Shown here: positions 19,576 through 64,000 of the stretch, piece by piece | How positions within the stretch are numbered: the first letter of the stretch is position 1 | How the letters are laid out: each line of letters opens with the position of its first letter | From: Rhizophagus irregularis | Lineage: Eukaryota | Length of the DNA stretch: 64,000 bases | Reading direction: 5' to 3' | Assembly (NCBI RefSeq): GCF_026210795.1 | Contig: NC_089436.1 | Location: 1,488,001 to 1,552,000, forward strand | Made by a program: the position numbers and the translations under genes | Notes under the pieces: model-generated | Told to the model about the DNA's origin: nothing | Databases searched by the model: none | Seen by the model: the letters and a program-made list of their open reading frames with translations, nothing else

Positions 19576-20094
19576 ATTATTATCTTGTATTCACATTAAA
19601 TTGACTATAGTAAATTTCTTAGATGAAAAGACATAGTTATTGAAATTGTATTAAAAGGCTTTTCTAGTAAAAGTGTCAGCCTTTGATAAATTCTTTGCAC
19701 TATATATTATGCTAGCAAATACTAATCCTATTCTACACAAATCACTAGAAAATAGTGGTTTATCAGGTTTAGAAAGAAATTCCTCCTTTTTTTTAGAAAT
19801 CTACTTGGAGTTCCAGTAATTACTAAACTGAACTGATCAGTTTTCAGTTTTCAGTATTAGTTTTATCATTTTTCAAACAGTCTGACTTTTTATTTTATGA
19901 TTGGCCAACTGATAATCTTTTTTAGTCTATATATATATACAGTTTTATTTTTTAATATAGTTTTGTAATAAACATTGAAGTGTAGTAAATTTCAGTAAAT
20001 TAGTATTAGTAATTGGTAATTACCAGCCGGTTTAATTATACAGTTTACTAATATCAAAAATTTGGTAAATTACCAATCACTAGTGTTTTGCATA

Positions 20095-20705: not shown

Positions 20706-21855
20706 AATCTTTTGTAAAACATTACCAATTACTAATACTGAAATTTAGTTTCAATTTTAGTATGACTCAAACTGAAACTAGTAAACTATGCTAATCAAAC
20801 CCTTAAATCTACTTAAATATACAGTCAGACTTCTATGTACTGATATTTTATGTACCGATAATTACCTGTATCGATAAATTTTCTATGTTCCATTTCATAA
20901 TTAATAAAAAAATCTTGTTGTACTGATACTAGCCATTAACCTGTTGCTTTGCAATGGTATACATACATATAAAAAAAGCGTGACCTGTATGTAACAATTA
21001 ATTCTGGCCAGAATTATGTAATCAGTGCAGAAATTTCCTTTTATGAAGTATTTGTGAAACCAAAATTCCCTATTTTTGTGGGAAGCAAAATTTCCTTTTT
21101 TGGAAGTTAGTATAACGTCACGTGATAAAGTGCCCAATAGGAGCGATGTTACACAATTCAAATTTATTTATACAGGGTAGTCTAAACATTACGGTTACAC
21201 ACAAAAACAATTATTATATAGTATAGATTATATATAATTTTACAATGTAACATATACCAATACTTTTCTATGCTTTTTTTTAATTAATACATAGTGAATG
21301 ATATATATGGGATTCATTTATACTACTGTATTATATATATTGTATCACTTATATTACTTATTATATAATAAAATATAATAAAATATATATAAAAGTTAAG
21401 GTTGCTTGCCGAAACCTGTTTGGCCTAATGCCGAAAGGTGAAACCTCTTATATAGTGCCAAAACATGCCGAAACCTCTATAATAGGTTTCTCCGTAGTTT
21501 TGGCATAGTTGATCATAAGATTTGCATATAATTACGCCAAGTTACACCAATTAATAATATAATTTAGATGATCAAATAATCTACAGATAAAAGATTAAAC
21601 TTCAATATTTTACCGTCGTCTTAGGGCTTCTTTTAAGCTTTATCTAGTGTTAGAATTTTCATTTCTAACTCCCATATTAATATTATGATATTACACGTTT
21701 TTACAGTTTTTTTTTAAGGGGCTTATATTCATTAAAAAAAAATGCGTAACATGCATTTAATAAACCCAATTCCGTCATCTCCTTAACACTGAACTAAAGT
21801 TTCTTTTACTTTCTTCCGTTTTCTTAATAATAATATTAATAATAAACTGTTTCAA

Positions 21856-23028
21856 ATGACTGATCACATAGAAGATTCACCCATTAAAATGAAAAATAGA
21901 GGAGGTCGGCCACCTAATAGCATTTGGGAAGATATTAATAAAGGAGAAGCTGTTGGTTCTGGCAAATTTGCCGCCTCCTGCAAGTACTGTAAGAATACAT
22001 GGTCACGCGGTGAAGTTTCAAAGCTCAAAGAGCATCTTTCAAACCATTGTCCAGATGCGCCAGCAGCAGTTGTTAGAAGGTATATGACTAAAGTAATGGA
22101 ACGGCAAGATAAGTCCAAGTCATCCAAAAAAAGAAAATACTCTGAAGGTCAAAGTAACATGGATGATTACCATGATTCAACAGAGCTTAACGAACAAAGA
22201 TGTACACGAATTAATCGTGCATTAGTTAAATTTTTTATTGCGTGCGGAATTGCGTTTAGAGTAGTGGAACATCTCTTTTTCATCAATTTTATAAAAGAGC
22301 TTAATGCCGGGTACAATACACCAACAACGGAAGTATTAGTAAATCAACTACTTGAACGTGAATTAGCTCAAGTGAACTTCAAAGTTAATTCTGAGCTTGA
22401 AAAGGAAACGAATTTAACGTTAGGTTTGTTAAATTAAATAGGCTATCATACGTCATTTTTATTTAATTGTCCGGAGCGAAGCGAAGGACTATATATGTTT
22501 ACGCACTATGATGATCTATGGAAATAACGTGTAAATTTTCAATCACGTGAGTTTCTCTGTCCAGGAATTCCAAGGCGTTATGCTGCTAATCAGCAGAAAA
22601 TTACCAGAATTCCAAGGCGTTATGCTGCTAATTAATAGAATATCGCTACATCTTTATTATTATACCTCGCTCCAGACTTACAACGGTTCCCATTTCCTAG
22701 TCTTACTTACTATATAATATTAATTTATAATTTAGCCTTTGATGGTTGGACGTCTGGTACACATCGTTCAATTTGGAACTTCATTGTAATGACTCCGTCG
22801 CGTAAAGAATATCTTTATCAACTTTCTGATTTGTCTGAAAATTCGCACACTGCAGAATATCTAGTTACGGTAATTGAAAAGGTTATAGAAGGTATTGGAG
22901 AAGATCGAATATGTGCTGTAGTTTCCGATAATGCGGCCAATGTTCGTAATGCACGAAAAATTATACATGAGAATCATCCAAAGATTGAGAATGTGCGATG
23001 CGTTGCACATTCTATCAATTTAATTGCA
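21856..23028 (+). pseudogene. hAT transposase with BED zinc finger, 3'-truncated
   Basis: BED finger IWEDI...CKYC...LKEHLSNHC. ACGIAFRVVE; spliced LTLAFDGWTS (first catalytic D); VVSDNAAN (second D); CVAHSINLIA (CxxH). The sequence then switches abruptly to a palindrome. Confidence 0.88.
22469..22700 (+). mobile_element. Small non-autonomous Helitron/Helentron-like insert inside the hAT intron
   Basis: Subterminal inverted repeat gtccggagcgaag (22469) / cctcgctccagac (~22665). Internal 26-bp direct repeat gaattccaaggcgttatgctgctaat. Ends in ctag|t. Confidence 0.45.
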
Positions 23029-23030
23029 TG

Positions 23031-23080
23031 AGCCATTTATGACTAAATAATATAATTATATTATTTAGTCATAAACGGCT
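23031..23080. repeat. 50-bp spacerless palindrome
   Basis: agccatttatgactaaataatataa|ttatattatttagtcataaacggct is self-complementary with one mismatched pair; centre at 23055/23056. Confidence 0.95.
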
Positions 23081-23087
23081 TAGACTA

Positions 23088-23260
23088 GATTATTTAGTAA
23101 TAAAATAATCTAAGTATGACTATAAATAATCTAAATATAACTAAATAATCTAAATATAACTAATTAATCTAAATACAGTATATCTAAATAAATTAAATAT
23201 ATCTAAATAATCTAAAGTTAATAACCTAAATATGATTAAATAATCTAACTAAATAACCTG
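23088..23260. repeat. Degenerate tandem array of (c)taaataatc units next to the palindrome
   Basis: Repeated taaataatctaaatat(a/g)ac variants; the same ctaaataat core forms the palindrome arms. Confidence 0.8.
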
Positions 23261-24385
23261 TTTGTGACAATTTTCTGTACCTAGTTATTTTTCTTACTAT
23301 ATTCCTTCCCTTTGAATTCGCTTTTCTTTAGCTTTTTTCATTTATTATTTGTGATCATGTGATTAAATAACCTAAATATTACTATTACTAAATAATCGAA
23401 ATGTACCTATTTTTATTTAATCCTATACACGAATAATCAGCTTCCAATATAATTTATGATATTGGGATTCTACGGTTGATTGGTTGTTAAACTTTATGTT
23501 GAAGGTCTGGCTTGTCTGCAATTGTTTGGATCCCAAGTTTTATGATGAAGTTTCTGCCATTCTGTACCTCTTTGGTTACCTGTTAAGGATTCGAGGGTGC
23601 TTTCCTTCTTCACCTATTTTGTTATCCATCAAAATGCCAAAATATGGTAAAAAATATCGTGTCAGGTGGCGCAGTAGATCTGCGATTAATTTCGGCCAGC
23701 ACTATACCATAATTTCAGCCGATCTTTTGGGCATGTGATTCGAGGATCCAGCTTGGCACCATGATGGTGACTTGATAGTGTCCTGGAACTTCTGTGGAGC
23801 TGTCATGGAACTGGCAGGGAGCTAGAAAGGTTCTATTATTTTGCCAGTTTTAGGCCAGCTTGGGTGCTGAGTTATTATGTTCAAAGATCTGGCCGAAATT
23901 GTGGAATAGTACTGGCTGAAATTATGGAGCGAATTTTGACTGCGCCTACTGCGCCATGGTCACGTGATCCTGTTACGGCACCGAACACCCTTTCATAGTT
24001 GCGGGCTAGTAACGGGAATGTTCTGGGAATGTTTCCGGAACCCAATGTATATGCATTTGTGCAAAAAAAAAAATGTCTAAACAAGTACAAATCATAAATC
24101 CTGAAACTGGACAACAAATCACACTAGATGGCTTACACAATATTGCCGGCTAAGTTTAATTCTACTTTCGTCTACCTATTTGTCTCCAAGAGTGAGGCCG
24201 GAGGTATTATGCTTCTGAGGTTTTCGAGGTATATCGGCGGGATGTTGTAAGCACTTCCGAGGCCCAATCATAGTTTATTCTGGGTCGAAGCAGTGTGTAT
24301 GCCGATTTTTGAGCGTCCCTAGTGTCCCTAGTAAAAGTAAAGTTATAGGAAAAAAAAAATATCGAATCCATCCTGTATGTATGCC

Positions 24386-24846: not shown

Positions 24847-25170
24847 TTAAGTTCTCTCGATTAGCCTAAAATTACTTGAGCGGAATCTCTTTGGGACCAT
24901 CAGCTTGCTTAGCCAGCTTTTTTCGATGGTAATGTTCCTTCGATCTATGTTTTTTGCATGCGTATCGCAATAGTCATATTTGGATCTTGTCGGGTCACCA
25001 CATTCTTTGCAAAGAACTTGCCTAGAATTCCGATGGACTTTACATCCCTTTGGATCAAAGCATCTCCGATTACATACTTCTCCAGTTCTAAGAATATATG
25101 GACAATAATAAAAATTCCAGGATGGTGGTTCTCTTTTGAGAACTCGTGTCTCCTTTTTTTCGCCTTCCAT
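24847..25170 (-). CDS. Small Cys/His-rich putative zinc-binding protein
   Basis: CPYILRTGEVCNRRCFDPKGCKVH and CKECGDPTRSKYDYCDTH. Intronless, divergent from PolB. Confidence 0.6.
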   Translation of the reverse strand: MEGEKKETRVLKREPPSWNFYYCPYILRTGEVCNRRCFDPKGCKVHRNSRQVLCKECGDPTRSKYDYCDTHAKNIDRRNITIEKSWLSKLMVPKRFRSSNFRLIERT

Positions 25171-31927: not shown

Positions 31928-32809
31928 TCACTTTTTTTTTAATACATCATCATCCTCACTTAAATCCTGCAAAATACAGTCCGGAGTCGAGGATTCATCA
32001 CATTTGGAAGTAGTGGTCGCACAATTCACCTCGAGCTTATTCTTGACCTTATGCATATTAATTGGGATAAAAAATTCCTTACCATTACACTCTAGTCTCA
32101 ATTCCCGCTTTGATGCAAGTAAATCATAATTATATTTATCAAGAAGCGTGTTGGGTAAGATTAGCATCGGCTTAGGGTATTTGACTACAGCAAAATCAGC
32201 ATATATAGTACATCCGGGAGCGAAATTTACTGGGACATTTCTGACAATTCCAAGGGATTCTGTGGGAGTAGTAGCAATGCCTCTGAGATCATGTTTTTCT
32301 TTTGTATCAATTTCTAGCTTTGATCGTTTAGAGATATCATCTGTCATAATCAGAAAATTAGCACCAGGATCAACTATGGCACCCGGAATGACTAGATGCT
32401 TGATTTTGCACTTAGTAGTAACAACATCTGTGGCGGGATCTTTTTTCTGAACGAAATCGATTTCCATAGGCTCATTTAGAATTTCGTCTTCCCCACCTGA
32501 GTCTGGAGTTTCAGGAGTATCCGAAGTGGAGTCATCTTTACCATCAATCAGTATTCTGGAAGCAGAATTCTGCGATTGAAAAAAGGCTATGATGTCGCCA
32601 AACTTTTCATTAAGCACCTTCTCAATAATTTTCTCAATAATATTTTCCAAGCGGGATTGATTATCCTGTGACAGGGATTCTGAACTTCGCTTTTTCTTTT
32701 TAGAGAAAAAAGCTGTCTCTATATCTGTTACCTCTTGAGACTTAGCCGTAAGGCGACTCTTTGATTTCTTTTTTAGTGAAGAGGAAGGATTACTCGATTC
32801 TTTCTTCAC
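31928..32809 (-). CDS. Retropepsin-like aspartic protease, in the -1 frame relative to Gag
   Basis: AIVDPGANFLIMT (D-x-G active-site motif with P at x), LRGIAT flap-like segment, DFAVV...MLIL pattern. Overlaps the Gag stop at AAAAAAAAAGTGA. Confidence 0.8.
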   Translation of the reverse strand: MKKESSNPSSSLKKKSKSRLTAKSQEVTDIETAFFSKKKKRSSESLSQDNQSRLENIIEKIIEKVLNEKFGDIIAFFQSQNSASRILIDGKDDSTSDTPETPDSGGEDEILNEPMEIDFVQKKDPATDVVTTKCKIKHLVIPGAIVDPGANFLIMTDDISKRSKLEIDTKEKHDLRGIATTPTESLGIVRNVPVNFAPGCTIYADFAVVKYPKPMLILPNTLLDKYNYDLLASKRELRLECNGKEFFIPINMHKVKNKLEVNCATTTSKCDESSTPDCILQDLSEDDDVLKKK

Positions 32810-34991
32810 TTTTTTTTTGCCTTAGTAATATTAATATTAATATCAGCTTCGGACTCAGATTCGGATGAAGAACTCGAACCAGAATCAGAAGAGTCATCAG
32901 ACAACATATCAGAGTTAGTGTCCGAACCCGAATCTGAATCTAAAGTGGCAAGATTTACTTTACCTTTTTTAGACTTACTCTTCTTTTTTCTGGGACACTT
33001 ACGAGAATTGTGACCAGTTTTACCACAATTAGAGCATTTATGCTTGGCTAACTTTTTGACCACATTAACCATTTGAGAGTATTTTTTGGAAAGCTTGGTG
33101 TAATTGGTATTATTAACACCCAATCTCCTTATTAATTCGTCATTAATATAATTATCTAAGGATGTAAGATCTTTTGGTGCATCAACTGGCATTCCCAACC
33201 GCACTGCGCGTATATACATCTTTTCTAAGGCATCATTATTTTGGGGTTGTGCCTGAATCGGTTGAACTAACTGTGCTTCAAGGGAGGCTATTTTGGAATT
33301 TAACTTATCAATCTCAGCTGAAGAATTACTCTGATAATTTTGACCCCATTTAAATTGGGAGCACGCTCCAGCCACATGTCTTTTAGATTTGTAAAAAATG
33401 CATTAATACCGGCAGGAGTGACAGCTCGCATCCATGTATAAAGATCACCCGACAAGTGATTCTTAAGAAATCCTACAGTTTGGGCATCACCATCTGCTAC
33501 ACCTAATAATAAAGGTCGGATTCTTTTCTTTTATCAAGTATCTGGTGAGTCTGTGGGTAGAAATTTTTCTTGAGTTAATCTTTGAAGTGCCGACTGCCGA
33601 CTACCTACTGTTTCTCGTTGATAATGTGATCTCATCCAAGCGCGTAAAGTAGCTGGAGTATTAATATTAGCATTTCCGTTATATGGGTCTTGGGCAGGAA
33701 CTGGTAAATATTTTCCTCCCATCTGAGCTTTATAAATATCACACTTGACAGCATCATCAAAATCTCCGGCATTTGCATTTTCAAGAACAGTCATATGTCC
33801 TTGCGCGAATGATATTGATTGAATAAGCCTATCCAAATAATCGTCAGGAGGTTCTTGGCCTGTATACGGCTTATTTTTAGCAAGAATAGGTGCAATCAAA
33901 TTTAATACTGGTAAACGTCTAGCGTCAGCCATATTTCCTAATGGATTATTCTGAAGCGCCAAAATTTGTCCCTGCAAATTTAAAATATTCTGGTCTCTTT
34001 GCCTAATCACTAGTTGGAAAACAAACTTTTCACGTAGCAATTTACCAATGCGGGTTTGTTTTCTTGCTATAATAACTAACATCCTATTTACCTGGTTTTG
34101 GGCATTGGTCTGCAACTGTCGGGTATTTTGCTGAAGACGGTTAGTATTTCGCTGATACAATAGCTGTTTAGCAAATTTTTCTCGTAATAGTTCCTGAATA
34201 CGTCTATCTTTATCCTGATATGAAAACATCCAGCGACAGGATTCTTGCCTCTCATTATTATAGGCCAACATAGCCAAGTCCCGCTCTCCTTGAGCATTGT
34301 CCCTTTCTCTCACAGTTCTTTCAACTCGAACTCGGGATTCATCTAATAAACGTTGAAATCGTAAATTCTAGTTTCTAATATCTCTTAACTGATTCCCAAG
34401 ATCCCGTTCCCGGTTATTTGTATCATTTAATATGTTCTGATACTGATCACGCTCGGCTGTAATATTTTGCAAAGTAACCCGAATAGTATTTAATGAGCCT
34501 CTGATACCATCTATAACATTAGCAGGATTCTGCATAGGAGTACCAACTCCCCTAATGTGATTTTCAATTCGATCTAACCCTCTATTAACATTTGCGATAA
34601 GATTGGTCGTTGCCATATCTAAAGCATTTATTGAGATTTTTTTATCTATGAGAATCCAGATTCTTGCTTTAAGACTCCCAACCTTATTTTCAAGCTCTAT
34701 GATTCGTCCATCTTGAATAGACCTAACCTCATCTTTGAATTTCTTATCCTGTTGTAAAACCCTAAGCTGTTTTCGCAAATCGGATATTTCTGATTTAAGT
34801 TTCTCTATCTCTTTCTCATGTGCTATGATAGTATTATCCTGTATTGAGATAGTTCGATAACATTGCTCAAGCTCTTTTACCAGAGATCGAATTTTTTTCT
34901 CATTGCTCTTATTAATGAAAATCTCATCTTGAAGCTCACCACGAAGCTCTTGATTCGTATCTAAAAGCTGTGAATATGTCAGATCAAACAT
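32806..34991 (-). pseudogene. gag: Gag-like protein: N-terminal coiled coil, capsid-like domain, CCHC zinc knuckle
   Basis: ORFs 34991-34368 and 34313-33534 are one frame split by TAG. Capsid-like YTGQEPPDDYLDRL and LQRLTQEKFLPTDSPDT..KRIRPLL. Further stops at 33531-33536 and a frameshift near 33345, then CSNCGKTGHNSRKC. Confidence 0.78.
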
Positions 34992-35037
34992 GGTATTATT
35001 CAGCCCTGATTTATAGTACTATCATAATAATCCTACT

Positions 35038-36714
35038 TTGAGAATGAGTCAACCGCAAATTGTGATAGATCCCGATGAAGAGCTCCGTATAGTCTGTAGA
35101 CTTCTATTTTATAATATACCCGGTTTTCATCCCAATGCAAAAAAATTACATAAAGCATGTCAGGAGGAAGGATATTCTTTTCGATTACAGGATATCGCAA
35201 AATGGGTAAAATACCAATATAGCTACCAAATCTATCAACAGCCATTGCCATGCAAAGCTGAGGCGAGTTTCTCAAAAATCAAAATTCCAAATAAGGTGCA
35301 CCAGTGTGATATTTTGCTCCATACTCATGATGACCAGGATGGAAGAAGGGTATTCGTTTGTAGTTTTCTAGTCATAGATGTGGCAACACGTTTTAAGGCT
35401 GGACGTTCATTAACATCAAGAAATAGTTTGAAAATCTGGAATGCGGTCGAAGAAATATATGAGGACCCCTCTAATCCTCTTACATGGCCAGGATTATTGA
35501 TGACTGATGGTGATGCTTCGTTCCGAGGTGCATTTTTACGAGGGATGGAACAGCATAATGTTCCAATACGTGTTGTCGACCTTTATAGTTTCGAGAGCCT
35601 GGCTTTGATCAAAGCATTCAAGAAAAATCTAGCAAAATTAATATATAAGGTCCAATATGCTATAGAGGGGCGATTGGCCGAAGGAGAACGATCAAGACTA
35701 TGGAATAAAATTCTTGAGAAATACATTGATTTTATGAACAATAGCAAGACTCGCCTTATCGGAATGTCACCAGCTCATGCTATGACTTTGGAAGAGGTCG
35801 AATCGAAACCTTCTAGTAAAGCTAAACGGGCAATTAGGAGACACGAAGAGATAAAGTTAAAAAAGGGTACAGCGGTTAGATATCTATTGAAACCGGGTGA
35901 GCTGGAAGGTGATCACAGGCATCGAGCAACTGATCCGTACTGGTCATTACGTGTATACAAGATCAAAAGAGTTGTTGTCGGAAGGAATCCACCACAACCA
36001 GTCTTATATTATCTCGAGAATGAGCCCATTGAATCCACTGCTCACTTGATAGGACGGAACCCCAAGTGACCCTTCAAATATGAGGAACTTCAAGTGATTG
36101 AAGAATCTGATAAAATCGAGTATCCACCAGATGAATTTATGCAAAAATACCACCTTACTGGATTCATCCATTATGTTAATGCTTCCAGTAGTAAGTCAGT
36201 TCAGGCCGTGGATTATGCCATGAAGCGTGATGGGCAATGCCTTAGAAAGACCGGGCAAATAAATGGTCATGATGTGTATCTTTGGTCTTGCAAGAATGGT
36301 GCACACCAGTGGGAGTATCCACTAAAATATATTATGAAAAAATTCGAATGGTGTCCTCTTTGCCATCATAGAAGCGGTGAACGCCAATGCCGATATATTT
36401 TTGAGGATCTACTAGGCAAGAAATTTCCATCATGTAGGCCGAATTTTTTGCATGGAATGCAACTTGATGGATATAACGAAGAGTTGCAACTAGGATTCGA
36501 ATTTCATGGCAAGCAACACTATAGTCTTAATTCAATGTTTCATAGAAGAGGCCAGATAGATTTGGATGAACAGAGAATACGCGATCAGAAGAAGCAGGAT
36601 ACTTGCAAGGAGCAAGGTATATGTCTTATCGAAGTGCCTTATACTGCGGATCTTTTTCCATACATTAAGCATACACTAATCGAGAAAGGATTCTTGAGTA
36701 ATTCTTCAAGTTAG
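35038..36714 (+). pseudogene. Polinton/Maverick-type DDE (rve) integrase fused to a Zn-ribbon and PD-(D/E)XK-like nuclease; one internal stop
   Basis: [68 protein letters not shown] at 36067-36069 is the only break before ORF 36094. C-terminal [15 protein letters not shown] and [21 protein letters not shown]. Confidence 0.85.
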
Positions 36715-36782
36715 GTCGGAGAGAATTATCTTCTTGGTAATTTGCAAGATTATTTTTAGAATAATATTAGTAATAGTTCGAC

Positions 36783-37544
36783 ATGAAAATAAAGAAACTT
36801 GAGCCAGTTGAAAGGTTTGTATACCATATCGATGAGATTAAAGATGCCAAAAAATATAATGGACACTCAAGTGTTCCCCAATGGCCTTTCACCCTTGGAA
36901 TCTTTGGCCGTACTAATACGGGAAAAACTAATGAGGTTATTAATCTCACGCTCAGAACTAAGCCTTATCGAATGTCTAAAGGAAAGAAAGGAGGGACACG
37001 TTATATCAAGTGTGATGATTTGCTACTCATCGGTCACAATCTTAATGAGAAAAAATATATGATCCTTAAAACAGTGTATCAGACAATTGCTAATAATCCA
37101 AAGCCATATCGTGAAAATATTTCATTCCGAGCTTTGAAGCCTGATAAAATTCCCAAGATAGATTCATTTTCTCCGGACAGGGCTACGTTAGCTATATTCG
37201 AAGATCTATGCGCTGATCCAAAGGAAGTGCAGAAGAAAATTATTCCTTATTTCATTGAAGGGCGCCATTACAATGTCAGTTCGATATATGTATCCCAGAG
37301 TTACTTTGATTGCCCGAAGATAATACGAAAAAATCTCTCACACATCTGCCTATTTAACGGCTCCTGCACTACGGACGAGCTTAGCAGAATCGTGTGTCAA
37401 TATGCTAATGACTGGCGCAGTGTAATTAAGATTATTGATAAGGCATTATGTGAGAAAGAATTCATTGTTTTCGATCTAACTGTACCTCGAGAGCATCCAC
37501 ATAGGATACGTATTGGCTGGGATGTACCTCTCACTAATGAGTAG
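36783..37544 (+). CDS. A32-like (FtsK/HerA superfamily) genome-packaging ATPase
   Basis: Walker A GRTNTGKT, Walker [24 protein letters not shown] (arginine finger plus conserved Q), PKIIRKN. 253 aa, intact. Confidence 0.88.
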
Positions 37545-48160: not shown

Positions 48161-49618
48161 CTAGGCGGTTACCGGTGAGATAATAGGACTCATCATTGGT
48201 GAGGTTTTCCTTTCATAACCTCCATCACGATAATAATAACCTCTATCACGTTCACCATATTCATTATATCCACCATATCCACTATATCCATCATCATCCG
48301 AATCGTCCGGCATCTCTTCTTCAGAATCATTAGAATCGGAGTCATTGTCTGACCTACTTTCGTCTGTTTCTTCCCTTGATTGTGAAGCAACCTCTTCATT
48401 CATTTCTTCCGCTACCCTAGCTTCATTCTCGTATGGTGTACCCCAATAAGCGGTCTCATCGACAAAAGCCCCCGTGAGCGTTTTTATATAATCCTTCAAA
48501 TCGGCTGATAAGGATGTATTTTCTTCAGGCAAGATTTTTTCGCTAGTCTCAAGATTTCCGGCTGAAATTTCAGGAGTTGGAAAATCATCCTGCTCTGCAG
48601 AATTATCCCGCCTCTCTGAGGCCTCTATGATCTCTTGAATTTGATCGTTAGTCAACTCTGAAATGGAATTGGGACTATATTCACTAAGATACTTAACTTT
48701 ATCTATACCTATTTTCTCGATTATTCTAACAAGCTTCATAGACCTTTGAGTCCTTCTAGTTAGAGAACTACGGGAGATTTTTGGAAGCTGTATACCCATT
48801 TCTTTTGATCTCTTCTCACGAATGGTGACAAGGTGTTCTAACATCTCATCATAAATTATACCTTTTGCTTTTTTCTCTCCAATTTTGCCATTGCTATTTT
48901 CCACGAGTTCACTAAAGTGAACCATGAATTCTTTCCCAAAGTTAACCCAGCATAAGATTTCTTCCTCGTTGGCTTTTTTAGTGCGATATTCGGCATCTGT
49001 TGCTTTATCAAATAGCTTCGCTAAATCGAGCAGAGATGAAGAACAATTTGGGCGACGGGCCGTCGCTGAAATTTCAGTCATATTATCCTGAATGGATGGC
49101 TCTGCCATCATACCATCAGTTATCACCTGAACAATTTTCTCAGTACCCTTTTTCTTATGACTATTTTGGCCTGATTGCTTCGCAACCTCTTGTTCCGAAG
49201 ATGTCATGCTTTCAGTAAGAAGCTTCTTTTCCTTATTGCGTTGCTTTATTTCACTACTAACGATTTTCTTATGAGCCTCAAGCAAGAAATTATCCATCTC
49301 TTTCTCCTCTAACGGTTTTTCATGATGGACCACACCCGAATTGAAGTTAGATAAGATTTTATTAGGAGTATTATCATTTTGCAACTGTTTTTCTTCCAAT
49401 TTGTCAATTCTGGCATCACGTCGGTTATTCTCTTCTATCATCTGCTTCATAAGCTCCGCATTTCTGGCCTCAATCTCGACATTCCTGGCTTCAACCTCAG
49501 CAAGCTTCTTTCTAAGTTCAGGAATCTCGGCAAGTTTCTTTCTAAGTTCAGGAATCTCGGCATTCTCTGCCTCAAGTTCAATGATACGCTGTTTCAATAC
49601 TTCAAGCTCGGACGACAT
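48161..49618 (-). CDS. Coiled-coil/acidic protein (MSSELEVLKQR family)
   Basis: Intact 485-aa intronless ORF with a 30-bp internal tandem duplication (AEIPELRKKL x2) and an acidic Gly/Tyr tail. Confidence 0.75.
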   Translation of the reverse strand: MSSELEVLKQRIIELEAENAEIPELRKKLAEIPELRKKLAEVEARNVEIEARNAELMKQMIEENNRRDARIDKLEEKQLQNDNTPNKILSNFNSGVVHHEKPLEEKEMDNFLLEAHKKIVSSEIKQRNKEKKLLTESMTSSEQEVAKQSGQNSHKKKGTEKIVQVITDGMMAEPSIQDNMTEISATARRPNCSSSLLDLAKLFDKATDAEYRTKKANEEEILCWVNFGKEFMVHFSELVENSNGKIGEKKAKGIIYDEMLEHLVTIREKRSKEMGIQLPKISRSSLTRRTQRSMKLVRIIEKIGIDKVKYLSEYSPNSISELTNDQIQEIIEASERRDNSAEQDDFPTPEISAGNLETSEKILPEENTSLSADLKDYIKTLTGAFVDETAYWGTPYENEARVAEEMNEEVASQSREETDESRSDNDSDSNDSEEEMPDDSDDDGYSGYGGYNEYGERDRGYYYRDGGYERKTSPMMSPIISPVTA

Positions 49619-49792
49619 GATCTATATAAAACTAATACACTGTATATAAGCATTCAAAATAAAAAATATATCACATGTTTTTGGGCGACGGGCCGTCGCT
49701 GAAATTTGCCAAGAAAATTTTTTTATTATTACATGCTAAAAAATAAATACAAATGTTCGGGACTGCGCCCACGATACATAACATTTATGGTA

Positions 49793-50130
49793 TTATTTTT
49801 TGATAATTTTTTTGATTCTGGCCCTCTTGCTAGTTGGGGAACTATCAACACTAACCCTATCTTTTAATAACCCAACAATAATACCTATTACCCTTTTCAC
49901 ATTGCTTCGAAGTAGCTCAGGATTTTCTTTAATGGCGGACTTCGTAAGATTAATTTGGTATTCACTACCGCTTGTACAGAAAATACCGTCTGGAGTATAT
50001 ATGATAAAGTACCACTCCGTGCCCGTGGTCACGATACCATAAATATAGTCAAAATAGTCGTTCCCAAACGTTTGACCGCAGTTCGTTTCTTTTTATTCGT
50101 CTGAAACGCGCTTTCAAGCTGTGCTAGATT
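49793..50130 (-). pseudogene. 3' fragment of a Crinkler-like nuclease gene
   Basis: QLESAFQTNKKKR...DYIYGIVTTGTEWYFIIY...VIGIIVGLLKDR parallels the C-terminus of 57207-58343. Confidence 0.7.
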
Positions 50131-50784: not shown

Positions 50785-53379
50785 ATGGATCTTCCATCAC
50801 TCTTATCCTTCAAAGAAAAGTTCCTTGGTCATTCCGGTAGTCAAACTATTCTTATTTTAAGGATTGTCAGTTTTATATTAATCAATTTTTACTTGACAGC
50901 TCTTCGGAGTTATGTTGCTGATGTCTCTCCAGAGGAATTATCATATGTACAGTTTTTAAACGTCAGCCGGCCCCTTATTGTCATCTCCCACCCTTTTCAA
51001 AGACCTGGGATAATTTGCAAAGCGTATGGTGCAAACGCTTCCTAGAAGAGATTGCACATTTGGAAACTAACGTGAAAGAGAAGGTAAAAAAAACTCAGTT
51101 TAAGTAGCATTAGATATTTGTATGTGGACAGCTCTCGACGGGTAAATCCTGAAAAGAGTACGGGTAATAAACCTCGGTCCAAGTTGTGGTATACTGTATA
51201 TATGTGTGGACAGCTCTCGACGGGTAAATCCTGAAAAGAGTACGGGTAATAAACCTCAGTCCGAGTTGTGGTATACTATATATATGTGTGGACAGCTCTC
51301 GACGGGTAAATCCTGAACAGAGTACGGGTAATAAACCTCAGTCCAAGTTGCGGTATACTGTATATATGTGTGGACAGCTCTCGACGGGTAAATCCTGAAC
51401 AGAGTACGGGTAATAAACCTCAGTTTAAGTTACGGTATATTGTGTATATGTGTGGACAGCTCTTGACGGGTAAATCCTGAATAGAGTATGGGTAATCAAC
51501 CTCAGTCCCACACTTTCCTTAGCCTAAAAATTATTGCCTAGAAATTATTTATCACTAACAGTATTTTTCTCGACAGATTAAACGTGAATTTAAAGATATT
51601 GAGTACTTTCGGATGTTTTGGACATCAATAATCCTTCATCGGAAGAATGAAATAAGAGAAATGGAAAATGAAATAACTAAGGAACAGAGGTTGCTATAGT
51701 GCTAAACTATTTCTATTTCCTTTATAATAAACATCGCGTTACTTATTACAGTCCTCTATCCTATTAGTAATGAGAACACTAGAAGTTTCATTGAGCAGTT
51801 TGAATCTTCATACAAAGGACTTGATGACGAAAAAAAGTGGATACTGGGATCTGGAAACAAGGTTGAAGACATCATCTACAAATATGGATCAAAGCTCAAA
51901 TACGAAAAGTAAGTTTGGCATTATCAATCCAAATTCACACTTCATCATATGCAATTACTAATTGATTTTACGCATGTGCTTCAGTTTGGTTCATTCATTT
52001 GTTCTAGACACTGATGATAAAAAGATTCGTGACCTCTTCTCTGCAAATGAATGGAACGAGATTCTCGAGAAAAATTCTAAAAAATCGCCAAAAATCGAGC
52101 CTGATCTTCTATGTTACATAACGCAGTACAGAAAAGCACGTATTTCGAAAAAGTTATTTGTTTGCTCAATGCTAATATTTTTCTATTTTATAGACGAATG
52201 TAAAAGATCTTCGAAAAACGGTCAGCAAACTGTGTGAAAAAACTGTTTATGATGTGGAAGAACAGTTCGACTATATATGGATTAGGAACTGCATAAGTAA
52301 TTTGTAAGTTTAATTCATCACAATATCACATTAATGCTTTTATGGAGTCTTTAACTAGAACTTGTTCGAATTGGATATGATAGGTTGACTCTGTATGAAA
52401 TAAAACCGCGTGTTTTTGAGAAATCGCATCTTGAGCGGTGGTATGACACAAACATCTGGTCATCAATTATCGATCAATGTATGTGGAACTTGAAGGACGT
52501 GGAGCTCATCAGGTAATCTGAAGAATAGCTTAAATAGCTTAATAATTATTCCTGTTTAAATTCATAACGTTTGAACATTTAGGGGAGAATCTTGTTCTAT
52601 TGCTAGTAGTGAGCGCAAAGCAAAGAATAGAATTATGCAAGAACGTAAACCGTTCGGTCGCCGTGGTGATGGAGTGTTCCGCATGGAAAAAGGTCTTTGT
52701 GAATATGGTGCTGCGGAGCATGGACATCTTTTTAAGGGTGAAAAGGATAAGAAATTTATGTCAGATGGTTTCAAGTTGACTAGAATGCTACGAGACATGT
52801 TGGGAAGATTTTCAGCGGAGTTAAGTACAGAAGTATTTAAGCAAATCGAGATGGTTGGATATTTGCATTCGGGTAGGTTTAACTGTCTACAAGCATGACT
52901 TTTATATTTATAACACAAACGACTTTTTATTATCAGAGAGAATGTTGCAGATATTCGCCCTTGACTATGCAGAAGGGTATATGATACGCCTACGAAAAGG
53001 AGCCCTATTAGAAGTTCCCAAGGAACCGGTGGAAATTGACAATCTGTTGAAGCTGATGACGGCTGTGTTATCAAGCAAGGTATAATTTGGTTTGCTTATT
53101 TATGATCATGTACGAATCTTTACTGATCTAGTGTTGTTTTTATTCCAAATAAAGCTACGAATAGCTCGCACAATTTCCCTGTTGAAAACTCCTGAACAAT
53201 CAAATGATCTCGAATTTGCTGGAGAGTTGTCAACTGCTGGCAAAATTGAACGCTTTTGCTCCAATAATAGAATCCTAGATTTACCAGATCCGCCTTCATC
53301 CCCACCCTCGTCCTCATCTTCAAAGAAACACAGTTCTGATACCAAGATGACAAAGAAATCTAAGAAACGCAAACCATAA
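50785..53379 (+). CDS. Multi-exon gene with C-terminal restriction-endonuclease-fold domain; possibly degenerate
   Basis: HLERWYDTNIWSSIID, RGESCSIASSERK, GRRGDGVFR...EYGAAEHG...KFMSDGFKL; many short GT-AG introns. Confidence 0.65.
51121..51512. repeat. Intronic tandem repeat, ~4.8 copies of 82 bp
   Basis: tgtggacagctctcgacgggtaaatcctgaanagagtacgggtaataaacctcagtcc units start at 51123, 51205, 51287, 51369 and 51451, inside intron ~51084-51576. Confidence 0.95.
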
Positions 53380-54950: not shown

Positions 54951-56416
54951 GAGTTTTATGAGACAGGGTGTTGGAGCGCTAGAACTTTGGGTAAGTTTTT
55001 CGTTGATATGTTGTTTATATGCCCTAGAGCATTGTTACGTAATAAGGGGGTTTTATTTCCTTTTTGTACAACTGGACATCAGCTGTACATCAACCATAGT
55101 TCAACCAGACTTCAACCAGACATTACATTTTTCGTTATTTTTTTCATTTTTACGACTATCAGTCTGCGGAAGATAACCTATCCAACTTATTTACCCTGAT
55201 AGCTTTTCTTTTTCGGATGAATATGAGAAAAAAAGTGCGGTTATTGAGAGTTTTTTGCTGAAGCGCAGTTTCAACCCGACTTCAACCAGACTTCAACAAT
55301 AATATCTTTTCATCAGTAATTACGCACCTTATTTCGTCATTGCACTAGTCAAAATAAGCTAAATGTATCGTTTATCCAGAGATCTGTGAAGCCCTTTATC
55401 TTCATAATTACGTCGGTTACCAGAGCCTGATTGTTAAGGACAAAGAAAATCCGTTTTATGCTTCGCAATTGATGCACTCCTTATTTCGATTGTTATAAAA
55501 ATCGGAATATTTGAGGCCCCTTGTGGGCGGGTTCGAGATATGAATTGTATATAAACGGATTAATGTGTGATTAGCCTATACACGTTGGTATTACTAACGC
55601 TAATTCTTATTCAAAAACGGATTAATGTGTGATTAATCTGTACACGTTGGTATTACTAATTCTTATTGAAGTTCGTTATGTAGAATAGTTATTATTACCC
55701 TACCCCCTATTTCAATTGTAATCACAAAAAAAGAATAAAAATCGGTTCATCATGGATCGAGATCTGTAGATGACGAATCACACATGCATTACTAATTCCT
55801 ATTCAAAAACGGATCAATGTATGATTAGCCTATATACGTAATCTGAATGCACTAACGTCAGTAAGATAATAAAAATATACCGTTTATCCGAAGATCTGAA
55901 AATCATATATTCTAATCGGCTCTATTTATTTCTTTTTATCAACGCGGATGTGGTTTTTTTATTAGTAATTCAGAACTGCGTATGAGTGAGATAGAACATA
56001 CCAGAACTTTGAGGAAAGTAGCAACACAAAAATATTGCTCTTGCTGAATTTATTAATAGATCCTCTAAAAATGATGACTACAGATGCCGGCAGTGTTGGG
56101 ATTTTTTAACTCGGACACTGCAAGGAAGTTATGTTCGGCCCAACACTGGATGTCAGTGGCGTACATGCGAGTAATTGATTCGCCCAATAATTCTTCTAGG
56201 CGGTTACCGGAGAGATAATAGGACTCATAATTGACTGAGGTGCGGGATCATCAATATATATATATATATATCATGGTTCTCGTGAGTATTTTATCAAATC
56301 GTCATGTGTTTAGTGACGTAACATATTTTCGCCCGATGCTGGTATGCGGAGCGACCATAGACGAGGAAAGGTAAATAACCTAAATTGAAGATAAGATATT
56401 TTGGTATATTATCGTC

Positions 56417-56848
56417 ATGGAACAAACCTATTCTGACACTAGTGCTGGTGATAAAATTGAGGTATACGAATTCTTGGAGGCTTTGGGATTATTAGATAAT
56501 GAAGTCTCGCCCGTCAACATGGATGATGATGACAATAACGAATCTGACATCGACGAAGAAGATAGTGATGATGATCAGGATAATTATTGGGACCCTAGGA
56601 AAAGATATACTGGATAAAGACGTTTTGGTGAAGATGCTTTGAAAAAACTTTATCAAACCCGGGAAGCTCGTCATCGGAACATTGTACTCATGGAATTTAC
56701 CAGACGTCTTCCAGATATATCTGATCAAGAAAAAAATAGATTATTCGACGCATTCTCTAGGTCTAATGCATTTGGAGTGAAAGAACATAATGTACTCTTG
56801 GATGCGTTAGCCGATCCCGTGAAAGGTTGGGATCTTAATAATTATTGA
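56417..56848 (+). pseudogene. Small acidic hypothetical gene with one internal stop
   Basis: ORFs 56417-56617 and 56639-56848 are in the same frame, separated only by TAA. Confidence 0.5.
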
Positions 56849-57206
56849 ATGGATAATTCCCCGGAAGATTATGCATGCCTGTGACGCAATTACTTATACC
56901 TGTGGATATAGGAGATCGAACTCCTTAATTTTTTGTATCCTATTAGGAATAACGATTTCCGGTTTAAGTTCAGCTATTCTTTCATTATTCAATGATACGC
57001 TGTTTCAATGATTCAAGCTCGGATGACATGATCTATATATAACTAAAATGTATATAAGCATTCAAAATAAAAAATATATCACATGTTTTGGGCGACGGGC
57101 CGTCGCTGAAATTTGCCAAGAAAATTTTTTATTAATACATGCTAAAATAAATACAAATGTTCGGGACTTTGCCCATGATACATAACATCTAGGCTAATAT
57201 GTATGA

Positions 57207-58343
57207 TTATTTTTTCAAGCGATACCCCTCTATCCTAGCTCTCTTTCTATCCGATTTATCCTCCACACATGCCCTATCTTCCAACAAGCCAATGATTATG
57301 CCCAAAACCTTCTTAACACCCTTACGCAATGTTTTATATTCTTCGGAGTTCTCAACCAGAGCCTCTTCGACAAATTCGATGCTAAAGGGGGCCTTACTCG
57401 CCTGTAATATTTCACCTGGAGAATAGAGGAGAAAATGCCAATCCCTAGCAGACGTCACAACCCCGTACAGATAGTCAAAATAGTCCTCATCACGCTTTCG
57501 TTTTCTCTTGTTCGTTTGAAACGAACTTTCGAGTTGCTTGATATTCTGAGCAAAGCCTTCTGTTAATTTTTGCTGGACCTTATCCTCTGTGATGCAAATA
57601 AGCTCTTCGGATTCCTATAAGTTTATATTTTGCGATAAGTTAATAGGTCTCTCTAGGACCACATAGGATTTAGGAGGAACGGTAAGAATCCAAGGAAGGC
57701 TTACCTTGATTGCATAATCGACCCGCCCGCTACTTTCATCTCCAATTATTTCGTACTCAGGCCTCATACTAAATTTCTTTTTCGTGATATCTTCTGCGAT
57801 ACGAAGGGCGGTATGTAGTATAGTTGAAACGTACTCATTGCGCATGGACTCCAAACTTGTTATTACCAATGTCCCATAGCTTTTAAGTCGTAACTTGATA
57901 TCTGCCATACACAGTTCGAGATGCTTATTTTCGTCTGGGATTTCATGGATTCGTGGTGTGAAAAGAGGTATAATCTCTGTGCCCTCAGAAGCGAGGTCAT
58001 ATTTTTCTAATACTTCCTTTAAGCTACGGTATGTCGAAAAAGCCCTCAACTTCTTATCCTTACACTCCTTGGCGAACTTCACGAGTCTTGATGCAGGACC
58101 CAAGCCTAAACCAACACTGCGAAATTTCTCTTCGGTCAAGTCAAAGAAGTCCTGGCCCGTAATCTTCTCCTTGCGAATAATATTTTCATCGTCCAAGTCT
58201 AGCCCTAAGCCACGTTCCTGCAAAAAAGAAATAAGTTTCTCTGTGTCATATTTCTTAATTTCGTCCGCCAACGAGACCGTCTCATTTCCAGCAACAGTAG
58301 TGGAGGTGGAAGCTGGAGTATAAGGTGTACTAGTTTCAGACAT
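57207..58343 (-). CDS. Crinkler-like protein: N-terminal SAM-like domain plus PD-(D/E)XK nuclease (2 exons)
   Basis: IIRKEKITGQDFFDLTEEKFRSVGLGLGPASRL (SAM-like). GRVDYAIK, intron, then ELICITEDK...GFAQNIKQLESS...YLYGVVTSARDWHF. Confidence 0.75.
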
Positions 58344-59471: not shown

Positions 59472-60482
59472 TCATCTCTCCGGACTAGCTAGATCGTCGA
59501 ATAATACTATCGAATAATTCCTTGGTGCTTGTCTGATATCTATAGTGGAGTGATCGGCACCAGAGTCAACTGTCATGAATATATTGGAATTAGGTTGTCG
59601 TAATATCTGGTGAAGCCGACTTCTAATATTAACAACTCTAGGCTGTCTTGATATTAGCTCTATCACTCGCTCCATCTCAGCTCGAATATCAATCGGATCC
59701 CGGTAATTCTCAACATGGGTATTTGGATTTAGCTGATCTATAGCTTTTTTGCTAATATTAACACACCCCCTCAGATTAAGATATTTTAATTTGAGACATG
59801 ATCTAGCAATTTCTTCGATAGTCACATCGGTAATTTTACAATAGCTAAGGTCAAGATGCTGGAGCTTTGGATTGGAGCGAATAATACCACAAATTGAATG
59901 TTCGGTAATCTCTGTGAGATAGTCAATATTTAAATATTCTAATTTATGGCATGACTTCACGATTTTCCATAGACCCTCGTCATCTACTTCTCGAGTACGA
60001 AAACTCCTATCATCACACAGATTGAGATACTTCAAATTCGGGTATGAACCTGCTATCAGTTCTAATGCTCTATTACTAAATCCTACGCTATTTTTGAAAC
60101 TCAAATGGATTATATTTGGGCATGAATGTACAATGCTTATGATTTTTTTATCTGAAAGTGAATGGTAGTATGATATTTCGAGATGAATTACATTTAAGCA
60201 ATAAACTGGCTTTTGCTTCCTACGTACTAGTTTTATGAATTTTTTCAATCGAGAGTGGCATTTATTCTTCCACTTTAGCTCGATGCGTTTCCATAGAATA
60301 GGGGCACCGCATCTGTACCATAATCGGGAAACAAATAGAGCGGGATAAAGTGTCTTATCTACCACTAGGAAATATAGAATCCGCTCCAATAGTTCCGGTA
60401 AATTTATAACACCTAAATGCGCCATAAATAATATATGCTGTATCTTTAATCGAAAAAAATGTGATTCTACACCAATGATCAC
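59472..60482 (-). CDS. F-box-like / leucine-rich-repeat (cysteine-containing) protein
   Basis: [13 protein letters not shown]...ALFVSRLWY (F-box-like). Repeats [53 protein letters not shown]. Intronless. Confidence 0.85.
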
Positions 60483-60491
60483 TGCTCCGGA

Positions 60492-61079: not shown

Positions 61080-61541
61080 CTATTCAGATCGGATACCTTC
61101 TTGGCTTCGCCTTATTGTCAGATTTTCTCTTTCTGGTGGCGCATGATCGGAATCGAATTCCTCAGATGAACTGGACTCGGACGAAGTATTTATGGATTCT
61201 TTACTACAATTGCAATATTCTATAGTAAATAGTTCGTCTACATTATCATCCAGCCACTTTACACGTTCTTCTAGTGGTTTAACCCTCTTTTTAAGCTTTT
61301 TATGCTGAGAACAATAATGATCCAGCCTATTTGTTAGCGCTTTTATTTCTCCAGAAAGCGTACTATATACTTCTGCATTCTGCTTGTCTAGTCCAAATAT
61401 TCGGGCTGTTTTCTCTGTACGTCTGATAACCTGGTCCCTTTGGAACTGTGCACTATCAGATGAATGCTTTTGATCGGTTACCATTTTCGTGATATTTATA
61501 TATGCTAGATCTTGCCTCGAGCGAAAAATAAAATTACGCAC
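61080..61541 (-). CDS. Hypothetical coiled-coil protein with acidic Ser-rich tail
   Basis: Open 153-codon frame (ATG likely at MVTDQK). Confidence 0.5.
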   Translation of the reverse strand: MRNFIFRSRQDLAYINITKMVTDQKHSSDSAQFQRDQVIRRTEKTARIFGLDKQNAEVYSTLSGEIKALTNRLDHYCSQHKKLKKRVKPLEERVKWLDDNVDELFTIEYCNCSKESINTSSESSSSEEFDSDHAPPERENLTIRRSQEGIRSE

Positions 61542-61575
61542 ATTGATATCCCGACCCTCTAACCTTTATATGTGA

Positions 61576-62720
61576 TTAGTTTTCATCAAAGATCTTGATT
61601 GCCTTCGCCTGATCATAAGGTTGTCCTCTTTTTCGATAATTCACTATTGTATAGTTTTTTGCTGGGGAGGCATGGTTATCTGGCGAATGTCTTAATCCTT
61701 CACTGGCAATAGTCATAGCTTCTGATAAATTCTTTGCACCATGAGATACAACTGCAAATACTGCCTCTAATTTACGCAAAGAACTAGGAAGTAGTGGTTT
61801 GCCGGTTTCAGGAAGGAACTCATCTTTTTTCAGAAATGTATTGAACTACAACACTCCGGGCTTTCCAGGGTCTCATAACTGTCCAGAAGAAATCGCATCC
61901 TGAATCCATACAAGCAATTCTCTAGCTCGCTCCTCGTTCTTCTCTAGTGATCTAAATACTCGAGGAATGTCTTGTTGTCCTCGATTTTTTGCATATCCAG
62001 TTACACCTCCATTAGATATACGCAAGGTTTTTATTTCAGCAGGACGGATGCAGAGCATTATCGTTACATCGGCAAGGGCTTGTAAGCCAGGGGCTCTGGA
62101 TACATCATATATATCCAATCTCTCCTTAACTGATTCTAACGAGAAGTGGTCCGGAAAATCGATCCCTTCATCTTCACATTGTTTACTACGCTCCTTTTGG
62201 ATTTTATTAGCTGAGCGGGTTATGTCTGGAATCAATGTAGCTGAGATAATTTTTTCTGAGGCTTTGAGGTTTCGCAACTCTCTTCGAAGCCTAGAGATTC
62301 GTGATAAGCCAGCGCTAGCATTAGAAGCAGATTCAGCTAAGGCTTTTGCTATACTTTAACTTCTACTTCACTAAGATTATCCCGAATGATACGCTGGGCC
62401 AAATCTCTAATAGTCTCTTTCGGTGAAATTTGACATGTATTCACTGTGTCCGGTTCTACTTCTTGGGTGATATCGGGAGTATCAGGAGCATTGGGTAAGG
62501 CTCCTCCTTTTTTCCGACCAGCTGTTAGCTTAGGAATTAATGTAAATACCTGTTCTTCGCTAAAGTTGTATCCTTTTTTGAGACGTCGTCGTGCCTGATC
62601 CCTCTTAACTTTGTCCGTTAAAAGAATATCCAACGCCGGTGCGTGCTTACTTAGCTCTTCGATACTCATCTCGGTATTGAGCTCGTTTTCTGTTATATAT
62701 CTAGTAGCGATGCCAGCCAT
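61576..62720 (-). pseudogene. Tyrosine recombinase, protelomerase/telomere-resolvase-like; one frameshift and two stops
   Basis: Reconstructed order LCIRPAEI (R), VTGYAKNR (K), SSLRKL.AVFA (R), LRH (H), SPAKNY (Y). Frameshift near 62355, TGA at 61873-61875, TAG at 61846-61848. Confidence 0.65.
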
Positions 62721-63134: not shown

Positions 63135-64000
63135 CTACCATAAGTAACCGTTCTCTTGGAGTATGCTAATACCTTTTTGCCACTCCTCATCATCATAAAC
63201 ATATGTCCGGGGCTTTCCCACATTCTCGAAGTTGCGGAGATATATTTCTTCACTTATTAATCTTTCCCTTCTAGACATCCAAAATATATCGTTTACGTCC
63301 ATACCGTCTGCTTTCGCAAAATCGACGGCATCTGCGTCCGACATCATCCTGTCTCGATATTCATGGAATAGTCTGATATCTTTTTCTGTGATGGTCACGA
63401 ATACGTCTGGGTCTTCACCATGATCGATAGCCCATTTCCTGAGGCGCTCTTCTCGCTCTTGTCTAGCCGGGGATGTGGAAGAAGCTTTTTTATTGCTAGG
63501 TTCGGGTTTATCTATTAGTGACTCAGGTGATTCGGAAGTCTTAGTACTCTCGGATGTCCCAGATGTTGAGGCGATTGGGGGTTCAGCTTTCTTATCTCTT
63601 GGAAGGAGATTCTCTTCTGGCTGGGGCGGGATTATTTTTGGAGGAATTATTTCTGGCATATTGAATATGGGTATGTCTGTGGCCTCGTTTGTGGGTAAGT
63701 CAGGTTGAGGTATGTCAGAAAATTCTTCGATATCACCTAAGCCAGATTCACGGAGCTTAGCTATGATCTTGGAGCGGTCAAGAATGTATTGCCATTCTCT
63801 TTTCCCACCACCTGTTTGCACTTGTTTGCTTTCAATACCAATTTCAGAAAACTTTTTTCCAGCAACTTTACTAGTCAATAGTTTTTCACCATTCTCTCCA
63901 CACCATTCAAGATACTTTTGATATAATGATGTACGACTTTGCGTGGATGTTCCACCCTCAGCCCTAGATGTAATATAGTCAATTATAAATCGAATGGGAC
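63135..64000 (-). CDS. C-terminal part of a D5-like primase/SF3 helicase (5' part outside window)
   Basis: Frame is open to the window edge: PIRFIIDY...RTSLYQKYLEWCGENGEK..TSKVAGKKFSEIGI...GGKREWQY, the pattern of the D5 C-terminal winged helix. Walker motifs are not visible in the window. Confidence 0.65.
   Translation of the reverse strand, partial: PIRFIIDYITSRAEGGTSTQSRTSLYQKYLEWCGENGEKLLTSKVAGKKFSEIGIESKQVQTGGGKREWQYILDRSKIIAKLRESGLGDIEEFSDIPQPDLPTNEATDIPIFNMPEIIPPKIIPPQPEENLLPRDKKAEPPIASTSGTSESTKTSESPESLIDKPEPSNKKASSTSPARQEREERLRKWAIDHGEDPDVFVTITEKDIRLFHEYRDRMMSDADAVDFAKADGMDVNDIFWMSRRERLISEEIYLRNFENVGKPRTYVYDDEEWQKGISILQENGYLW

Follow-up and report, generated by a model that had tools for sequence, protein, structure and literature searches.

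The region analysed here is a 64-kb stretch of the Rhizophagus irregularis genome, referred to below as the window. It carries a virus-like element whose left end lies at position 23031; the element extends over more than 41 kb and its right end is located beyond the window (Table 1). The GC content climbs from ~28% to ~37% near 22-24 kb. Three Nucleocytoviricota core genes are present in the window: a family B DNA polymerase (PolB), an A32-like packaging ATPase and the tail of a D5-like primase-helicase. The closest solved relative of the polymerase is that of African swine fever virus (ASFV; E = 2e-180, the next match being at 2e-19); the best PDB match was taken as the ASFV polymerase from its codes, which are named in the available text of two papers on that enzyme. 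Neither a capsid nor an RNA polymerase was found among the ORFs scanned; the element is incomplete in the window. The ORFs at 31931-35018 occur without a reverse transcriptase and stand back to back with the integrase gene. They could derive from a retroelement whose module was captured, or else encode the structural proteins of the element itself, the latter being considered because no jelly-roll capsid was found. The window also contains a tandem array of 82-bp units (51032-51523), cargo blocks that occur twice (47578-49812 and 55749-57215), and a motif recurring at 38464, 49034, 49667 and 57074.

Table 1. Features of the window and the basis on which each was assigned
Feature	Coordinates	Strand	Basis or remark
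Second, older resolvase-family relic	19599..19806	-	44% identical across 64 aa
Relic of a host hAT-type transposase (zf-BED, DUF659), interrupted by the insertion	21793..23030	+	Pfam, empty-site allele
50-bp loop-less palindrome, candidate telomere-resolution site, element left terminus	23031..23080	.	Palindrome scan, empty-site allele
Short subterminal repeats, AT-rich; multicopy in public runs	23081..23420	.	Repeats, contigs
Small ORF	24850..25170	-	Cys-rich homologs upstream of resolvase in 3/80 loci (L004, L017, L038)
Family B DNA polymerase with a single internal stop codon	25347..29282	+	Pfam DNA_pol_B, PDB match
Coiled-coil, Gag-like, CCHC knuckle and aspartic-protease-like ORFs	31931..35018	-	Weak Pfam matches only; "Gag-like" by eye
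rve-type integrase with C-terminal zinc-finger/nuclease-like domain, split by stop	35044..36711	+	~555 aa in homologs
A32-like packaging ATPase	36777..37541	+	Pox_A32, E 6.6e-7, above cut-off
F-box/LRR gene	59475..60491	-	Homolog in 7/80 resolvase loci
161-aa coiled-coil ORF directly downstream of resolvase gene	61083..61565	-	Homolog in 30/80 loci
Protelomerase-like (telomere resolvase-like) pseudogene	61576..62720	-	~382 aa when intact
Catalytic residues, all five kept in window copy	61651..62046	-	Alignment
C-terminal part of D5-like primase-helicase, runs off window	63138..63998	-	Pox_D5 E 0.002, below cut-off

To the left of the insertion, the segment 13680-18374 is a young DNA transposon, 4.7 kb long, with unassigned ORFs and 187-nt terminal inverted repeats at 99% identity. 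An older, decayed copy of the same family as the virus-like element is found at 18973-19806, just left of the insertion. It contains the resolvase-family relic at 19599-19806, beside another relic that is 83% like 45774-46356, and is separate from and outside the element. Its position adjoining the insertion suggests clustering of insertions.

The protein-coding gene of main interest is the resolvase-like gene at 61576..62720, which starts with an ATG at 62720 and ends with a stop codon at 61578-61576. This copy is dead. It has one frameshift near 62352, placed there because the N-terminal and C-terminal parts match an intact homolog in different frames, and two in-frame stops (TGA at 61875-61873 and TAG at 61848-61846). 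The two pieces are 91% identical (112/123 and 241/264) to the intact R. irregularis protein P0002. The original prediction, made from the sequence, had seen residues in the order R...K...R...H...Y after repair of three lesions, and would have been undermined had these residues varied among homologs. Both the exact lesions and the residues can now be specified: the catalytic codons of the window copy lie at 62046-44 (R), 61989-87 (K), 61776-74 (R), 61689-87 (H) and 61653-51 (Y). They are conserved across the family, being present in 50/57, 54/54, 53/60, 57/60 and 60/60 non-gap rows, respectively, of a 60-row alignment (the window row and 59 of the 120 listed homologs, picked at 340-445 aa). Where either of the two arginines is replaced in the family, the change is usually R>C or R>H, which CpG decay in dead copies would be expected to produce. 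In one column that is Gly in 57/60 rows, the window copy has Glu.

The reading frame is not a chance one, since the protein search returned 462 homologs at E<=0.001 (1258 candidates). Among the 120 homologs listed, all that carry an organism name come from Glomeromycotina (Rhizophagus, Gigaspora, Dentiscutata, Diversispora and Entrophospora). A profile search against 1.84 billion representatives gave 548 matches at E<=0.001, with divergent metagenomic homologs among the best 150. Six of the metagenomic homologs (P0189, P0198, P0231, P0238, P0243 and P0253) are Ala-rich, 35-46% identical to each other, and located on contigs of at most 22 kb. Judging from such homologs, the family reaches beyond the named Glomeromycotina records. 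A profile built from seven divergent homologs recovered only three of its own members. No family member was found in viral contigs, phages or plasmids, nor in prokaryote genomes searched with a single-protein query, which reaches close relatives only. In a set of 80 related resolvase loci, all metagenomic and mostly 1-2 kb long, eight loci passed the filter for an intact full-length ORF. Among these eight ORFs, the median dN/dS is 0.19 for the whole gene (24/28 pairs usable) and 0.14 for the catalytic domain (16/28 pairs usable). Therefore, the family was selected as an enzyme, though the window copy is dead. In the published literature, covered by titles and abstract openings and thinly for subscription journals, no description of the family was found; the term "protelomerase" does not occur in the available text of PMC13465315, PMC13533422 and bioRxiv 10.64898/2026.10.13.758929. 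To the extent of this coverage, the large enzyme family of these mycorrhizal fungi is undescribed; it was previously unannotated.

What kind of enzyme the family represents is indicated by predicted structure, by language-model features and by the spacing of the catalytic residues. A confident fold model (pLDDT 87.9, 64-row alignment) was made of the metagenomic homolog P0198, not of the window protein, to which P0198 is 38% identical over 236 residues (E = 1e-48). When this model was compared by VIA-align with 48,161 solved chains, only four chains were found at Z>=8 and all of them are protelomerases: TelA at 13.0 (243 residues, rmsd 4.3), TelA at 12.7, TelK at 12.4 and ResT at 9.1. Site-specific recombinases of the integrase kind come below (P2 integrase, lambda integrase, XerA 7.5; Cre 6.1), and variola topoisomerase IB, aligned over 144 residues of the catalytic half only, is well under TelA with a Z of 6.4. 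Similarly, protelomerase chains occupy ranks 1-7 of the Foldseek search of the PDB (E 0.0035-0.024, TM 0.44-0.57), followed by Cre at rank 8 (TM 0.33), and among viral models the EhV-86 telomere resolvase is at rank 1 (E 0.012). The model of a protein closer to the window copy, P0003, has a pLDDT of 35-60 over the catalytic domain. Its confident part, the N-terminal bundle plus linker, places TelA first of the 48,161 chains with a weak Z of 6.2; a Foldseek search with the low-confidence model gave no match at E<=0.001, Cre heading the non-significant list. In the language-model search of the ESM Atlas, the protelomerase family PF16684 accounts for 18/30 matches of P0003 and 20/30 matches of P0198 (score 0.98, 195/256 features common). 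Another 8/30 matches of P0198 form a set without a common family, and the best cluster of this set is mostly Preplasmiviricota.

The motif spacing was counted in 50 complete rows of the 64-row family alignment, 12 protelomerases and 18 integrases. All five catalytic residues are present in 41/50 family rows. The distance from the second Arg to the His is 29 in 42/50 family rows and 28-40 in 12/12 protelomerases, against 20-24 in 18/18 integrases. The His of the integrase H-x-x-R motif is found in 0/50 family rows and 2/12 protelomerases, against 16/18 integrases. Searches of Pfam, PHROGs, NCBIfam and PDB sequences with the protein, its homologs and the profile gave nothing relevant or significant; family proteins have no match to Pfam PF16684, and 10 + 7 of them have none to PF00589 and DUF3504. 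A profile-profile comparison, suggested originally as a way of telling resolvases from integrases, placed all five residues in register with the 12 protelomerases over 216 columns in the global alignment, and was not significant in either direction (E 0.04-0.27 for protelomerases, with 0.04 global and 0.07 local; E 0.03 for the 18 integrase controls, local and over 48 columns only). The structure searches point the other way from the outcome that would have spoken against the original prediction, namely integrases or topoisomerase IB as best matches, and they agree with its view of the protein as resolvase-like, placing it closer to telomere resolvases than to integrases, Cre and topoisomerase IB. 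The prediction had drawn its comparison with Crypton and DIRS recombinases; these, together with Starships, were compared via Pfam only, where no match was found. By fold and motif, and not by profile or activity, the gene family is very probably a divergent homolog of protelomerases.

A candidate substrate for such an enzyme is found at the left end of the element. The palindrome at 23031-23080 consists of 25-bp arms without a spacer, with one mismatched pair and an axis at 23055|23056. Its score of 22 equals that of N15 telRL in the same script and is the highest in the 64-kb window, where the next-best palindrome scores 12. None of 200 local shuffles reached this score (maximum 17), and the palindrome has a z of -7.9. 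No comparable palindrome is present near the gene in the 80 resolvase loci, the best one scoring 14 (L020). This imperfect palindrome of L020 was considered as a telomere and rejected, since it is part of an insertion with inverted repeats located past the stop codon. Viral contigs contain no match to the palindrome or to the window polymerase. Not far from the left end of the element, at 24390-24800, there is a cluster of short repeats of the GTCACTAAG type, which occur in both orientations and include inverted arms at 24485-24531 and 24652-24698; the cluster is a candidate replication origin.

The palindrome marks the insertion junction exactly. Contigs of the empty site, present in two public runs, are identical to the window over 22701-23030 and then go on in the hAT frame. 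Because they leave the window sequence after 23030, the junction is 23030|23031, and the palindrome starts directly behind it. Other flanks join the palindrome edge, at 23030-23037 or 23080-23081, in three public runs (these positions are among the 18 of 40 loose-end rows listed, and all the counts are lower bounds). Unrelated flanks are found before 23030 in at least two contigs (agreement 0.70) and before 23031 in at least two contigs (agreement 0.67). A flank is found before 23033 in at least one contig. At least one flank, present in two runs, is found before 23037 and itself ends in the first bases of the palindrome. At least three flanks behind 23080-23081 represent the same palindrome edge read on the other arm. 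At least two further rows have junctions elsewhere, before 23059 and behind 23096. No strand-switching joint was found at the palindrome in the DNA runs, which consist of assembled contigs and so would not display such joints; the single raw RNA run yielded 2 reads. Since different flanks meet the same edge, the palindrome is the conserved terminus of a multicopy element. The first bases of the element are AG, as at the terminus of Polintons. In run X13, a single contig carries foreign sequence of 28 letters attached at 23059, three bases off the palindrome axis; the join may mark the position of a resolvase cut, or equally a palindrome with its centre deleted. That a virus-like stretch begins with a palindrome, precisely where it meets the host sequence, is a new observation.

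The palindrome and the resolvase gene are 38.5 kb apart, and none of the 80 related loci contains both. Because of this gap, and with the right end of the element beyond the window, their membership in one element is supported indirectly, by neighbours and composition, which suggest that the two belong together. A D5-like homolog is located upstream of the resolvase gene in 9/80 loci. Homologs of the window ORFs at 24850-25170 (3 loci) and 39204-40911 (39204-39980: 2 loci) are found within ~6 kb of a resolvase gene elsewhere. Together with the older resolvase-family relic, which adjoins a relic of 45774-46356, these neighbours tie the gene indirectly to the left part of the stretch. A primase/origin-binding-helicase gene stands upstream of the resolvase in place of D5 at L038 984-3647 and L004 3-848; in L038 it is an 888-aa origin-binding-helicase ORF (PF02399, E 5e-12) and D5 is absent there. 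Therefore, the replication module is exchangeable.

The original prediction assumed that the element already has a DDE integrase, so that the recombinase need not serve integration. This argument fails for the integrase lineage concerned. The resident gene is split by a stop, and the D+35 position is occupied by K in 94 and by E in 8 of the 104 covered homolog rows. The two aspartates are invariant (53/53 and 67/67 covered rows), and a conserved Glu is located six residues ahead of the D+35 position (86 rows). Thus, in place of the D,D(35)E signature of Polinton/Maverick integrases, this copy has D,D,K and an internal stop. Three relatives that were scanned, P0360, P0362 and P0366, all have a Pfam rve match, and two of the three have the Glu. 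The close D,D,K lineage would be either inactive or non-canonical. The resident gene is therefore an uncertain candidate for the integrating enzyme, which leaves some probability to a reading of the resolvase itself as the integrase.

The above observations are consistent with the following explanation, which we regard as probable: the window gene is the dead version of what is likely a protelomerase gene, residing on a virus-like element that arbuscular mycorrhizal fungi carry in many copies, and the enzyme from intact genes would cut the terminal palindrome and reseal it into hairpins. A linear element copied by an RNA-primed polymerase needs a solution for its ends, and since the polymerase here is of the RNA-primed kind, a linear form of this element would need one as well. 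The free element would be linear DNA with covalently closed hairpin ends, copied by its own RNA-primed asfarvirus-type polymerase together with the primase-helicase, and the resolvase would split the head-to-head junctions left by replication. In integration, a hairpin would be opened ~25 nt from its tip and that end joined to host DNA, by an rve integrase, probably an E-retaining relative acting in trans, or by the fused nuclease domain. Fill-in of the arm would then produce a complete palindrome at the host junction, which as a resolvase substrate would let the enzyme double as an excision enzyme. Because each integrated end would be a complete telomere site, the protelomerase alone could release the element. 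According to the available text of PMC3558466, known protelomerases cleave a palindromic junction with a 6-bp distance between the cuts and so convert it into two hairpins. Of the parts of this scheme, hairpin formation by the resolvase at the terminal palindrome is moderately probable, and the full integration-excision cycle, with a hairpin-ended linear replicon, opened-tip integration and excision by the protelomerase only, is put forward tentatively. The linear hairpin-ended replicon was already part of the original prediction; the telRL-like palindrome exactly at the element's end is in its favour, and the hairpin form itself is something that we infer.

There are three other explanations. 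First, the enzyme may be a true protelomerase with its site elsewhere, the palindrome at 23031 being instead the end of a separate or nested element, a snap-back primer or an integrase handle, and the resolvase acting internally. The 38.5 kb between gene and palindrome, never spanned by a locus with both, would be compatible with this, as would the rearrangement suggested by the internal duplications (47578-49812 vs 55749-57215) and the internal, not terminal, resolvase site of phaeoviruses, as given in the available text of PMC13236599. However, no other palindrome in the window scores above 12 and the best one near the gene in the 80 loci scores 14, homologs of the 24850-25170 and 39204-40911 ORFs do occur within ~6 kb of resolvase genes, and the palindrome lacks a central spacer, as telRL does; we consider this explanation unlikely. 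Second, a protelomerase descendant may now act as an integrase/excisionase that joins the ends to host DNA and replaces the decayed rve integrase. This would account for the many insertions in spite of a K for the catalytic E in 94/104 integrase rows, and for the foreign sequence at 23059, where a resolvase would cut if the spacing in the available text of PMC3558466 applies. On the other hand, the window junction and most junctions among the rows listed fall on the outer edge, at a distance of 19-26 bp from the axis and not at ±3, the same fungi also have integrases that keep the E (8 rows, Pfam rve matches), and the 23059 case is one contig that may represent a deleted palindrome. This makes a role as integrase rather more doubtful still. 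Third, an ordinary tyrosine recombinase of the Cre/Xer/Crypton type, circularising the element or resolving dimers, would share the R-K-R-H-Y residues and would explain why Cre and lambda Int come next after protelomerases in the fold searches and why Cre tops the weak list of the P0003 model, but it is highly improbable in view of the gap between Z 13.0 and 7.5, the residue spacing, the loss of the H-x-x-R His, the first rank of TelA among 48,161 chains for the P0003 bundle and linker (Z 6.2, weak) and the lack of PF00589 and DUF3504 matches.

Under the preferred explanation, a terminal palindrome resealed by a protelomerase, the fungal system can be compared with several known ones. The predicted protein resembles TelA (Agrobacterium), TelK (phiKO2), TelN (N15), ResT (Borrelia) and PF16684 proteins in having a helical bundle, a long linker helix and a catalytic domain, with ~245 residues aligned, as well as in the R-K-R-H-Y residues with a long spacing from the second Arg to the His; the spacer-less palindrome of ~50 bp as candidate site is also shared. 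The fungal family differs in its low identity (10-16%) with no Pfam match, in a first-Arg-to-Lys spacing of 19 instead of 25-28, and in lacking the C-terminal stirrup. Unlike the protelomerase replicons, the fungal element is eukaryotic and nuclear, and its candidate site lies at the end of the integrated element instead of beside the gene. The nearest working analogue, as far as the available text of PMC13236599 goes, is found in the phaeovirus endogenous elements of Ectocarpus, eukaryotic DNA viruses that are likewise integrated, encode a telomere resolvase and have fold-back reads at a telRL-like palindrome. According to the same text, these elements insert at CC dinucleotides by means of a tyrosine recombinase distinct from the resolvase, and their palindrome is internal, whereas in the fungal element the palindrome is terminal, the integrase is of the rve type and the polymerase is asfarvirus-like.

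Asfarvirus-like polymerases have been reported from the same fungi. In the available text of Zhao et al. (PMC10640383), 15-33 polB copies are given per R. irregularis genome, in regions of <300 kb, with no description of the elements that carry them, and no A32 or D5 is reported in five strains. Gong et al. (PMC7017919) named the fundsbetaviruses from the polymerase alone, according to the text available. The window polymerase, with ASFV polymerase as its best PDB match, probably belongs to the same family as these polymerases, as far as the available parts of these reports allow the comparison. The available text of PMC10640383 and PMC7017919 does not mention ends, palindromes, an integrase or a resolvase of the polB regions. 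Polintons/Mavericks are similar in being large self-replicating elements with a B-family polymerase, an rve integrase and a packaging ATPase; from the available text of PMC6431247, they have a protein-primed polymerase, a cysteine protease and, in many cases, jelly-roll capsids, while the window element has an RNA-primed polymerase type, an aspartic-like protease, no capsid found and a length of >41 kb. Finally, the resolvase-like family shares its enzyme superfamily with Starships, DIRS elements and, going by the available text of PMC13465315, Glomhopper/CryptonA, which also occurs in the same hosts. It differs from all of these in having no DUF3504 or integrase Pfam match, no H-x-x-R His, and a linkage to replication genes.

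Natural intact sequences exist for both the enzyme and its candidate substrate, and a compact eukaryotic protelomerase could serve in the production of closed-end linear DNA. If the explanation given here is true, hairpin-telomere enzymes, found in bacteria, phages and algal viruses, would extend to fungi, and this would be the first fungal protelomerase system. The asfarvirus-like polymerase genes that each Rhizophagus genome carries as orphans, 15-33 in number, would then belong to a mobile element that is defined and can be recognised by its end. It would also mean a new integration-excision cycle, and self-replicating DNA elements of a new class in fungi, present in many copies in arbuscular mycorrhizal fungi. 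Moreover, a terminal resolvase site suggests that excision may leave hairpin-capped breaks in host chromosomes, from which rearrangements might arise in these plant symbionts.
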